Source of the DNA: Chiloscyllium plagiosum
Lineage: Eukaryota
Direction: 5' to 3'
DNA length: 64,000 nt
NCBI RefSeq assembly: GCF_004010195.1
Contig: NC_057733.1
Span: 36,632,394 to 36,696,393, forward strand
Position 1 is the first letter of the stretch. Each line of letters begins with the position of its first letter. The position numbers and the translations under genes are program-made. Shown one piece after another: positions 17,103-17,720 of the stretch. Under the pieces are notes generated by a model, which did not search any database, was not told where the DNA came from, and worked only from the letters and a program-made list of their open reading frames with translations.

Positions 17103-17720
17103 ATGTTGCCACCACATTGTGACATGGAAAAACGAGCTCTTTTTTCAGGAAATGAAGGATCAGGACTCATTGGACTTAAATCTGTGATTAAACGAAGAGT
17201 ACATGCAATTGCTACTTTTAAAATTGGGGCCATTCTGCTTGCTATTGTTCTAGTTAGTGTAATTGCCTGCTATAATTACTCTGTACCAGATTTTTTAGTA
17301 ACTTCTAGATCTATTACCATGAACAGAACTACACTAGATCTATTGTGGCAATCTCTAAATTATGAAAATAGGTCAGCAGCCTCAGAAATGATGAACAAAA
17401 TATCATTCAATAAGAGTCATTACAGCCACTGTCAGTGTGATGTTGATTACATCAATAGGTTAGATTGTGCTTTCAATGAAGTGATTGACATGAAGAAATG
17501 CCAGGCACGTGGCTGTTGTTGGAATCCAAATGCCAGTACAGGTACCCCACACTGTTTCTTGCCATCAAACTATCCTTCTTACAACATGGATTATCTTTCT
17601 CCAACCAGTACTGGCTACAAGGCCACACTGAGCCGCAATGAGAAGACTTTGTTCCCGAATGACATAATGGCACTTGAGCTGAATGTAATCTATGAGACAG
17701 CAGGCAGACTTCATTTTACT
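17103..17720 (+). CDS. GAA: GAA copy 1 exon 2 (exon starts 17064): N-tail, hydrophobic segment, trefoil domain
   Basis: Acceptor tttag|17064, ATG 17103, [22 protein letters not shown]|gtaagt. Confidence 0.93.

Follow-up and report, generated by a model that had tools for sequence, protein, structure and literature searches.

According to the available portions of the papers cited here, human acid alpha-glucosidase (GAA) reaches lysosomes by mannose 6-phosphate (M6P) routing (PMC7564159, PMC13116368, PMC10526932, PMC8191302) and is located both in the lumen and at the lysosomal membrane (PMC11048727). Its N-terminal segment is labelled a signal peptide (PMC5653652), its precursor is first cleaved proteolytically in the Golgi (PMC4135233), and cleavage at residue 57 takes place in the endolysosomal pathway (PMC13499122). 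The same sources describe poor secretion of GAA, which is raised by signal-peptide swaps (PMC8869611) and improved by the BiP signal (PMC13499122). A literature search, with subscription papers mostly beyond its reach, returned no explicit statement on an uncleaved human GAA signal. Wisselaar et al. reportedly found in 1993 that the human precursor is membrane-bound since its signal stays uncleaved.

Results

The window, i.e., the whole 64,000-nucleotide stretch of Chiloscyllium plagiosum DNA that was analysed, contains tandem GAA genes arranged head to tail on the + strand, one complete and the second represented only by its start. The coding span of copy 1 (17103..58953, + strand), delimited by tblastn with P0004 and P0127, comprises 19 coding exons and encodes 960 amino acids, with the WIDMNE and WTGD catalytic motifs intact. 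Its exon 2, the first coding exon (17064..17720, +), consists of 39 nt of 5' UTR followed by 206 codons; a polypyrimidine tract and AG lie upstream of 17064, GTAAGT follows at 17721, and the translation is identical to the first 206 residues of C. plagiosum XP_043570740 (P0127). In exon 2 of copy 2 (63331..63993, +), a 45-nt piece of 5' UTR precedes the ATG at 63376, and the translation equals the first 206 residues of C. plagiosum XP_043570742 (P0009); the gene continues beyond the window end. The 5' UTR parts of these exons (17064-17102 and 63331-63375) are open in frame (SFKINCLFI), and the same stretch is translated in annotated longer isoforms from Carcharodon (P0136) and Heptranchias (P0143). 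SINE-like repeat families fill the introns and flanks together with pieces of LINE-like reverse transcriptase (8396-9190, 38947-40363, and further intronic positions), and there are two assembly gaps (13830-14020 and 37394-37868).

Both genes are predicted to encode lysosomal acid alpha-glucosidases of family GH31. Each protein has 960 residues, with one trefoil and a single GH31 unit as opposed to the two units of SI and MGAM, and identities are 62 to 68% to bony-vertebrate GAA versus 40 to 47% to SI/MGAM. The copies group with vertebrate GAA in a tree built without SI/MGAM rows, and the GAA exon structure is present. The motifs holding the equivalents of human D404, D518, R600, D616, H674, and W376 occur in both copies, W376 corresponding to W400 in copy 1 and Y400 in copy 2. 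In copy 1, a luminal stem or propeptide (17274..17432, +; residues 58-110, with sequons N58, N74, N89, and N103) leads into the trefoil (P-type) domain (17436..17564, +; residues 112-154; PF00088). A 1,742-residue Chiloscyllium punctatum model (P0133) apparently fuses both tandem genes and could mimic an SI/MGAM-like two-unit enzyme.

The N-terminal tail

The tail of copy 1 (17103..17222, +; residues 1-40) begins at M1 (17103, atcATGt), includes M8 (17124, gacATGg), and carries a basic flank formed by K30-R32 and K40. The next in-frame methionine is M73, past the hydrophobic run. Because copy 1 has no methionine between M8 and M73, every secretory product would contain the dileucine match EGSGLI considered below. 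Initiation at a downstream ATG that removes the tail, which the sequence-only reading had named as a threat to its own proposal, is thus ruled out for copy 1. Copy 2 has an in-frame Met33 (63472, +), which could yield a short-leader form, and two out-of-frame ATGs lie between its M1 and M33.

Tails were compared in an alignment of 35 chondrichthyan GAAs and 5 outgroups, from which alternative isoforms, fragment P0132, the fused model P0133, Logan fragments, and an unrelated 35-mer had been dropped. The tail is 33 to 41 residues long in all 20 shark and chimaera GAAs; M1 aligns in 18 of them, and the remaining 2 begin at the equivalent of M8. This alignment rules out the tail as an annotation artefact, the three shortened tails being in-frame deletions in the gene models, and the long tail of copy 1 is predicted to be translated. 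The 15 batoid proteins are annotated with tails of 7 to 21 residues, the gene models beginning where position 20 or 33 would align, and the annotated n-regions of stingray and manta copy-B proteins have just 7 to 8 residues. M33 is present in 4/4 carpet-shark copy-2 proteins and in 8/8 batoid B-type proteins. Of 57 bony-vertebrate GAAs, 25 (including those of sturgeon, coelacanth, caecilians, and turtles) have 20 or more residues ahead of their best hydrophobic window, although some of the annotated starts may be wrong. A long leader is thus a frequent feature of GAA beyond mammals and birds; in birds and frogs, the leaders are short and look classical. The survey covers the GAAs recovered by protein searches, in which the teleost gaa/gaa2, lamprey, and human clusters were incompletely represented.

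Of the regions compared on a fixed tree of 20 shark and chimaera sequences, the tail evolves fastest, with a tree length of 4.35, followed by the stem (3.47), the hydrophobic segment (3.23), the trefoil region (1.75), and the rest (0.88). Between copies 1 and 2, dN/dS is 0.97 in the tail and 0.34 to 0.39 in the rest of exon 2, a contrast drawn from 28.7 synonymous sites that is not significant (Fisher P = 0.18).

The hydrophobic segment

The signal or anchor segment of copy 1 (17223..17273, +; I41-Y57) is an uncharged run of 17 residues; the net charge is +5 over the preceding 15 residues and 0 over the following 15. The N terminus of copy 2 is in register with that of copy 1 without gaps, and its uncharged run spans 15 residues (G42-Y56; 63499-63543, +; flanking charges of +3 and 0). 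The layout proposed from the sequence alone, a hydrophobic run from about residue 41 behind a basic stretch in both copies, is therefore borne out. The segment is homologous to L12-G28 of human GAA (PDB 9gsv, sequence from residue 6), where 17 uncharged residues are followed by HILLHDFLLVPR; downstream of the run, DFLVTSR in copy 1 corresponds to DFLLVPR in human GAA. Homologous to the human segment and equally long, that of the shark is thus the signal native to GAA, extended in its n-region rather than acquired in the manner of SI/MGAM. The supposed contrast with the short N terminus of the human enzyme holds for the n-region (40 versus 11 residues) and is overstated for the segment, which has the same length.

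A hydrophobic segment near the N terminus with positive charge on its N side, the arrangement of a type II signal-anchor, occurs in both copies. Such a charge bias imposes an N-in orientation and is common to cleavable and uncleaved signals, and a 40-residue n-region with a strong basic flank is typical of signal-anchors. Uncharged runs are 15 to 19 residues long in chondrichthyan GAAs, 24 in a bird MGAM (P0016), and about 24 in a shark sucrase-isomaltase (Heptranchias P0344), so the 15 to 17 residues of the two copies fall short of a permanent SI/MGAM-type anchor. The earlier proposal of a type II tether survives in part: an N-in/C-out protein whose anchor is not cut at once is plausible, but the run is shorter than the 24-residue anchors of SI and MGAM. 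We infer that the protein most likely exists for a time as a type II precursor, with a long cleavable signal as the main rival reading; a type II precursor is plausible for shark GAA and is probably common to human GAA.

That rival, an ordinary signal peptide with a long n-region, is a serious but unlikely contender. Signal peptidase would cut near A55/T55 during translocation, the tail would be discarded in the ER, and any motif within it would be irrelevant. The run of just 15 to 17 residues fits such a signal, as do the short bird and frog leaders, the 7- to 8-residue n-regions annotated for stingray and manta copy B, and the small residues at -1 and -3. Candidate cleavage-site residues are V53-I54-A55 in copy 1, with T55 in 14 and G52 in 8 of the 20 long-tailed chondrichthyan GAAs, and both V-I-A55 and V-I-T55 are compatible with the (-3,-1) rule. 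Against immediate cleavage stand the 40-residue n-region and +5 flank, which are signal-anchor-like. So does the human enzyme as far as the consulted parts of the sources describe it, with its first cleavage in the Golgi (PMC4135233) and the poor secretion directed by its native signal (PMC13499122, PMC8869611).

Promoters and divergence of the paralogues

Each copy is preceded by a putative promoter and non-coding exon-1 block, CpG-rich in copy 1 (10130..10733, +; CpG observed/expected ratio about 0.7; GTCATGTGAC at 10407-10416; candidate exon-1 donor at 10819) and matched in copy 2 (60938..61541, +; GTCATGTGAC at 61215-61224; candidate donor at 61612). We take GTCATGTGAC to be a CLEAR/M-box-like box. 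The blocks are identical at 603 of 604 bases and switch abruptly to diverged sequence; exon 2 is 74% identical. Their exon-1 role is suggested by the layout of human GAA, whose exon 1 is given as non-coding in the available part of PMC6852536. The near-identity may reflect recent gene conversion or an assembly error, and a promoter shared by both copies, CLEAR-like box included, speaks for a pair of co-regulated lysosomal genes. Nearly identical promoter blocks are a poor fit to a lysosomal versus brush-border split of the copies, and sharks own a separate sucrase-isomaltase (P0344). Given the candidate donors, out-of-frame ATGs at 10605 and 61413 would open an upstream reading frame of 55 or 63 codons in the 5' UTR of each copy.

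GAA pairs occur in carpet sharks, Heterodontus, Mustelus, skates, and rays. In a quick tree of the catalytic part, the carpet-shark pair falls together and so does the Heterodontus pair. The columns that separate the carpet-shark copies more often agree with than swap the separation in rays (19 vs 7), skates (12 vs 5), Mustelus (10 vs 2), and Heterodontus (6 vs 1); the exceptions are Heterodontus against skate (2 vs 4, reversed) and Mustelus against ray (7 vs 6, even). Each of the five groups shows the D801/N801 difference between its copies, Stegostoma copy 2 excepted. Because copy-separating columns mostly agree across lineages, a single duplication that predates the split of sharks and rays is suggested, with gene conversion afterwards. 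The one literature search aimed at this tandem duplication found no report of it, so it is apparently undescribed; the wider searches gave no paper on shark GAA.

Two luminal positions differ between the copies. At residue 801 (window near 49760-50130), the copy-2 types of sharks and rays bear an additional sequon, N-G-S, in place of the Asp found in Callorhinchus and the copy-1 types. Residue 400 (copy-1 exon near 27906-28040) is Trp in copy 1, Tyr in 4/4 carpet-shark copy-2 proteins, and Phe in 8/8 batoid B proteins, and W400 is retained in the copy-2-type proteins of Heterodontus, Mustelus, and lamniforms. Trp or Tyr at this site is linked to alpha-1,6 activity in SI/MGAM. The human equivalent, W376, is a subsite -1 contact (PMC5653652, in the part available), and its replacement raises a possible shift in the linkage preference of copy 2. 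The sequon and the change at the W376 site indicate that the paralogues diverged in some way, and these luminal differences are clearer signs of divergence than the tail motif.

The dileucine match

EGSGLI (17154..17171, +; residues 18-23) matches the sorting consensus [DE]XXXL[LI] in copy 1 only, copy 2 having EGKVLA at the same residues (63427-63444, +), as had been noted from the sequence alone; it would face the cytosol only while the anchor lasts. When the copy-1 tail is shuffled 100,000 times, 4.7% of the shuffles contain the consensus, and so do 5 of 199 windows of 41 residues taken from the luminal parts of 10 GAAs. With two tails and several motif types inspected, a single match is not beyond chance. 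A second [DE]xxxL scaffold nearby, EKRALF (17127..17144, +; residues 9-14), becomes a complete match in certain sharks only (DEWPLL, DEWALV, and EKQALV).

The strict motif is present in 9 of 35 chondrichthyan tails and in 6 of the 20 long tails, 5 of the latter at the site of residues 18-23, namely, four carpet-shark copy-1 proteins and Pristiophorus. Carpet sharks retain it in 4/5 copy-1 and 0/4 copy-2 proteins, the zebra shark (Stegostoma) having lost it from copy 1 through replacement of E by Q (QGSGLI). The copy-1-type protein of Mustelus has DEWPLL and its partner lacks any match, so that in carpet sharks and Mustelus a strict match is confined to the copy-1 type. No strict match occurs in either Heterodontus copy, Callorhinchus, or Mustelus X1, nor in any of 57 bony-vertebrate GAA tails. 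In batoids, the annotated copy-1-type proteins lack this stretch of the tail, and 1 of 7 has a strict match. Among copy-2-type proteins, lamniforms have EGMELM and two of three skate B proteins have ELIGLL, showing that the motif does not track paralogue identity. In the available part of PMC2173715, Nef isolates retain the acidic and both hydrophobic positions, and LV and LM pairs function in Nef; if such pairs are allowed, 11 of the 20 long tails match at one of the two [DE]xxxL scaffolds (9-13 and 18-22).

Site rates on the fixed 20-sequence tree place I23 (2.87) in the top class, followed by E18 (2.43) and L22 (2.15); the slow sites of the tail are M1 (0.24), R32 (0.27), and K40 (0.29). 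Residue 23 among the 20 long tails is I in six, T in four, A in four, M in three, and others in the remainder, a column that lacks the orthologue conservation of a sorting signal. The motif therefore fails as a conserved marker of copy 1, a check across sharks that the sequence-only reading had called for: only 5 of the 20 long tails have it at this position, and it is absent from Stegostoma copy 1, Heterodontus, and Callorhinchus. A gain of the motif in copy 1 is ruled out by LI at this site in Pristiophorus and the skate B proteins. EGSGLI looks like chance-like, poorly conserved, incidental sequence and is probably inactive.

Among 150 distant representatives, 12 non-vertebrate GAA-like proteins had a recognisable trefoil and a tail of at least 24 residues. 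Five of these 12 tails have the strict motif, whereas shuffling predicts 1.09 (post hoc P = 0.002): amphioxus XP_019633183, scorpion XP_023230572, the sponge Sycon, Lygus, and Cimex (P0179, P0184, P0188, P0237, and P0275). EEPFLL recurs in records from B. belcheri, B. floridae, and B. lanceolatum, and the other invertebrate motifs are DKAILL (in the scorpion), EKASLL, and DSHPLL. YXXphi is not enriched in the non-vertebrate tails (8 of 12 versus 5.9 expected, P = 0.14). Invertebrates may thus have a membrane-tethered, dileucine-sorted GAA, which leaves some life in the idea of the sequence-only reading, but the shark motif is its weakest example.

Discussion

The account that we prefer, with only modest confidence, is an old tandem GAA pair in which a long n-region precedes an ancestral signal-anchor that is released later, the enzyme being sorted by M6P and the motif being incidental. 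Translation from M1 (or from M8 in copy 1) would yield a cytosolic n-region of 33 to 41 residues and then the hydrophobic segment of 15 to 17 residues. This segment, GAA's ancestral signal, would insert into the ER membrane N-in/C-out, probably as a signal-anchor that is uncleaved at first. The precursor would be briefly type II until proteases cut in the stem, and the soluble enzyme would reach lysosomes mainly via mannose 6-phosphate, as in mammals. The tail would act as a loosely constrained linker, with EGSGLI a remnant of an ancestral E-G-M-x-L-I string lost in many lineages rather than a targeting label of copy 1.

After the cleavable signal, the next alternative is a more distant prospect and rests on the sponge, arthropod, and amphioxus tails. 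The ancestral animal GAA would have been a type II protein sorted by an acidic dileucine without M6P. The copy-1 lineage of sharks would keep a working form via either of the [DE]xxxL sites nine residues apart, and the copy-2 lineage would be shedding its tail (Met33 starts, 7- to 8-residue ray leaders) and retuning its active site; mammals would have kept only a slowly cleaved anchor.

More doubtful still is the model of the sequence-only reading, in which both copies stay type II past the Golgi, EGSGLI of copy 1 binds AP-1/2/3 and leads to endolysosomes, and copy 2 is directed to the surface or shed. A distance of 17 residues separates the motif from the membrane, and a persisting anchor would keep it in the cytosol; its distribution in carpet sharks (4/5 versus 0/4), Pristiophorus, and Mustelus (DEWPLL in the copy-1 type only), its frequency in non-vertebrate tails (5/12 versus 1.09 expected), and the divergence of copy 2 at the N801 sequon and the W376 site are all in its favour. 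However, the motif is lost in Stegostoma copy 1, the Heterodontus pair, and Callorhinchus and is absent from the 57 bony-vertebrate tails, strict matches in batoid copy-1 types (1/7) are set against ELIGLL in copy-2-type skates (2/3), I23 belongs to the top rate class, and the promoter blocks are nearly identical (603/604). A motif-driven divergence of the destinations of the copies is thus improbable. We give least credence to a tether kept in both copies for most of a route to a common destination, with luminal differences (active-site rim and glycan) and an optional Met33 start in copy 2, since the similar layouts and promoters and the 12 carpet-shark copy-2 (4/4) and batoid B (8/8) proteins that combine M33 with Y or F at residue 400 are offset by the short hydrophobic run, the two out-of-frame ATGs between M1 and M33 of copy 2, and the W400 retained in copy-2-type Heterodontus, Mustelus, and lamniforms.

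Under the preferred reading of a late-released ancestral anchor, the comparative point is modest: the GAA leader ranges from about 7 to 41 residues across cartilaginous fishes, which is mostly ordinary variation, and the tandem duplication has kept two copies that are apparently active, with catalytic motifs intact. Sorting by the tail, if real, would provide an M6P-independent route for the Pompe-disease enzyme and would explain the poor secretion directed by the native human signal; for such sorting, the tails of invertebrates are more promising candidates than the shark EGSGLI. If the ancestral dileucine route were true, a shark or amphioxus tail would bring GAA to lysosomes without M6P.

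Among known systems, human GAA (PDB 9gsv and 5nn3) is the best single-unit PDB match and likewise consists of one trefoil and one GH31 unit. The first coding exons of human and shark share their end point at the RLHFT codon, its 5' UTR piece (c.-32) resembles those of 39 and 45 nt in the shark, its 17-residue hydrophobic segment is homologous, and the catalytic motifs remain intact in the shark copies. It differs in having an n-region of 11 rather than 40 residues, and the shark has two tandem copies, the second of which has Tyr in place of W376 and an N801 sequon. The type II brush-border enzymes SI and MGAM share the order of N-terminal hydrophobic segment, stem, and trefoil, and MGAM-type domains have Tyr at the W376-equivalent site, as in shark copy 2, but their 24-residue anchor follows a tail of about 10 residues, they contain two GH31 units, their identity to the shark copies is about 43%, and sharks have an SI of their own. 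Invertebrate GAA-like proteins show the same succession of long N-tail, hydrophobic segment, stem, and trefoil, but their motifs are canonical and their tails have no visible homology to that of the shark. The MHC II invariant chain is a type II protein with a [DE]XXXL[LI] signal. Compared with the signals of LIMP-II and Nef, as described in the available part of PMC2173715, EGSGLI likewise fits the consensus and would be N-terminal and cytosolic if the anchor persists, but it differs in having two glycines at X positions and poor conservation among orthologues.
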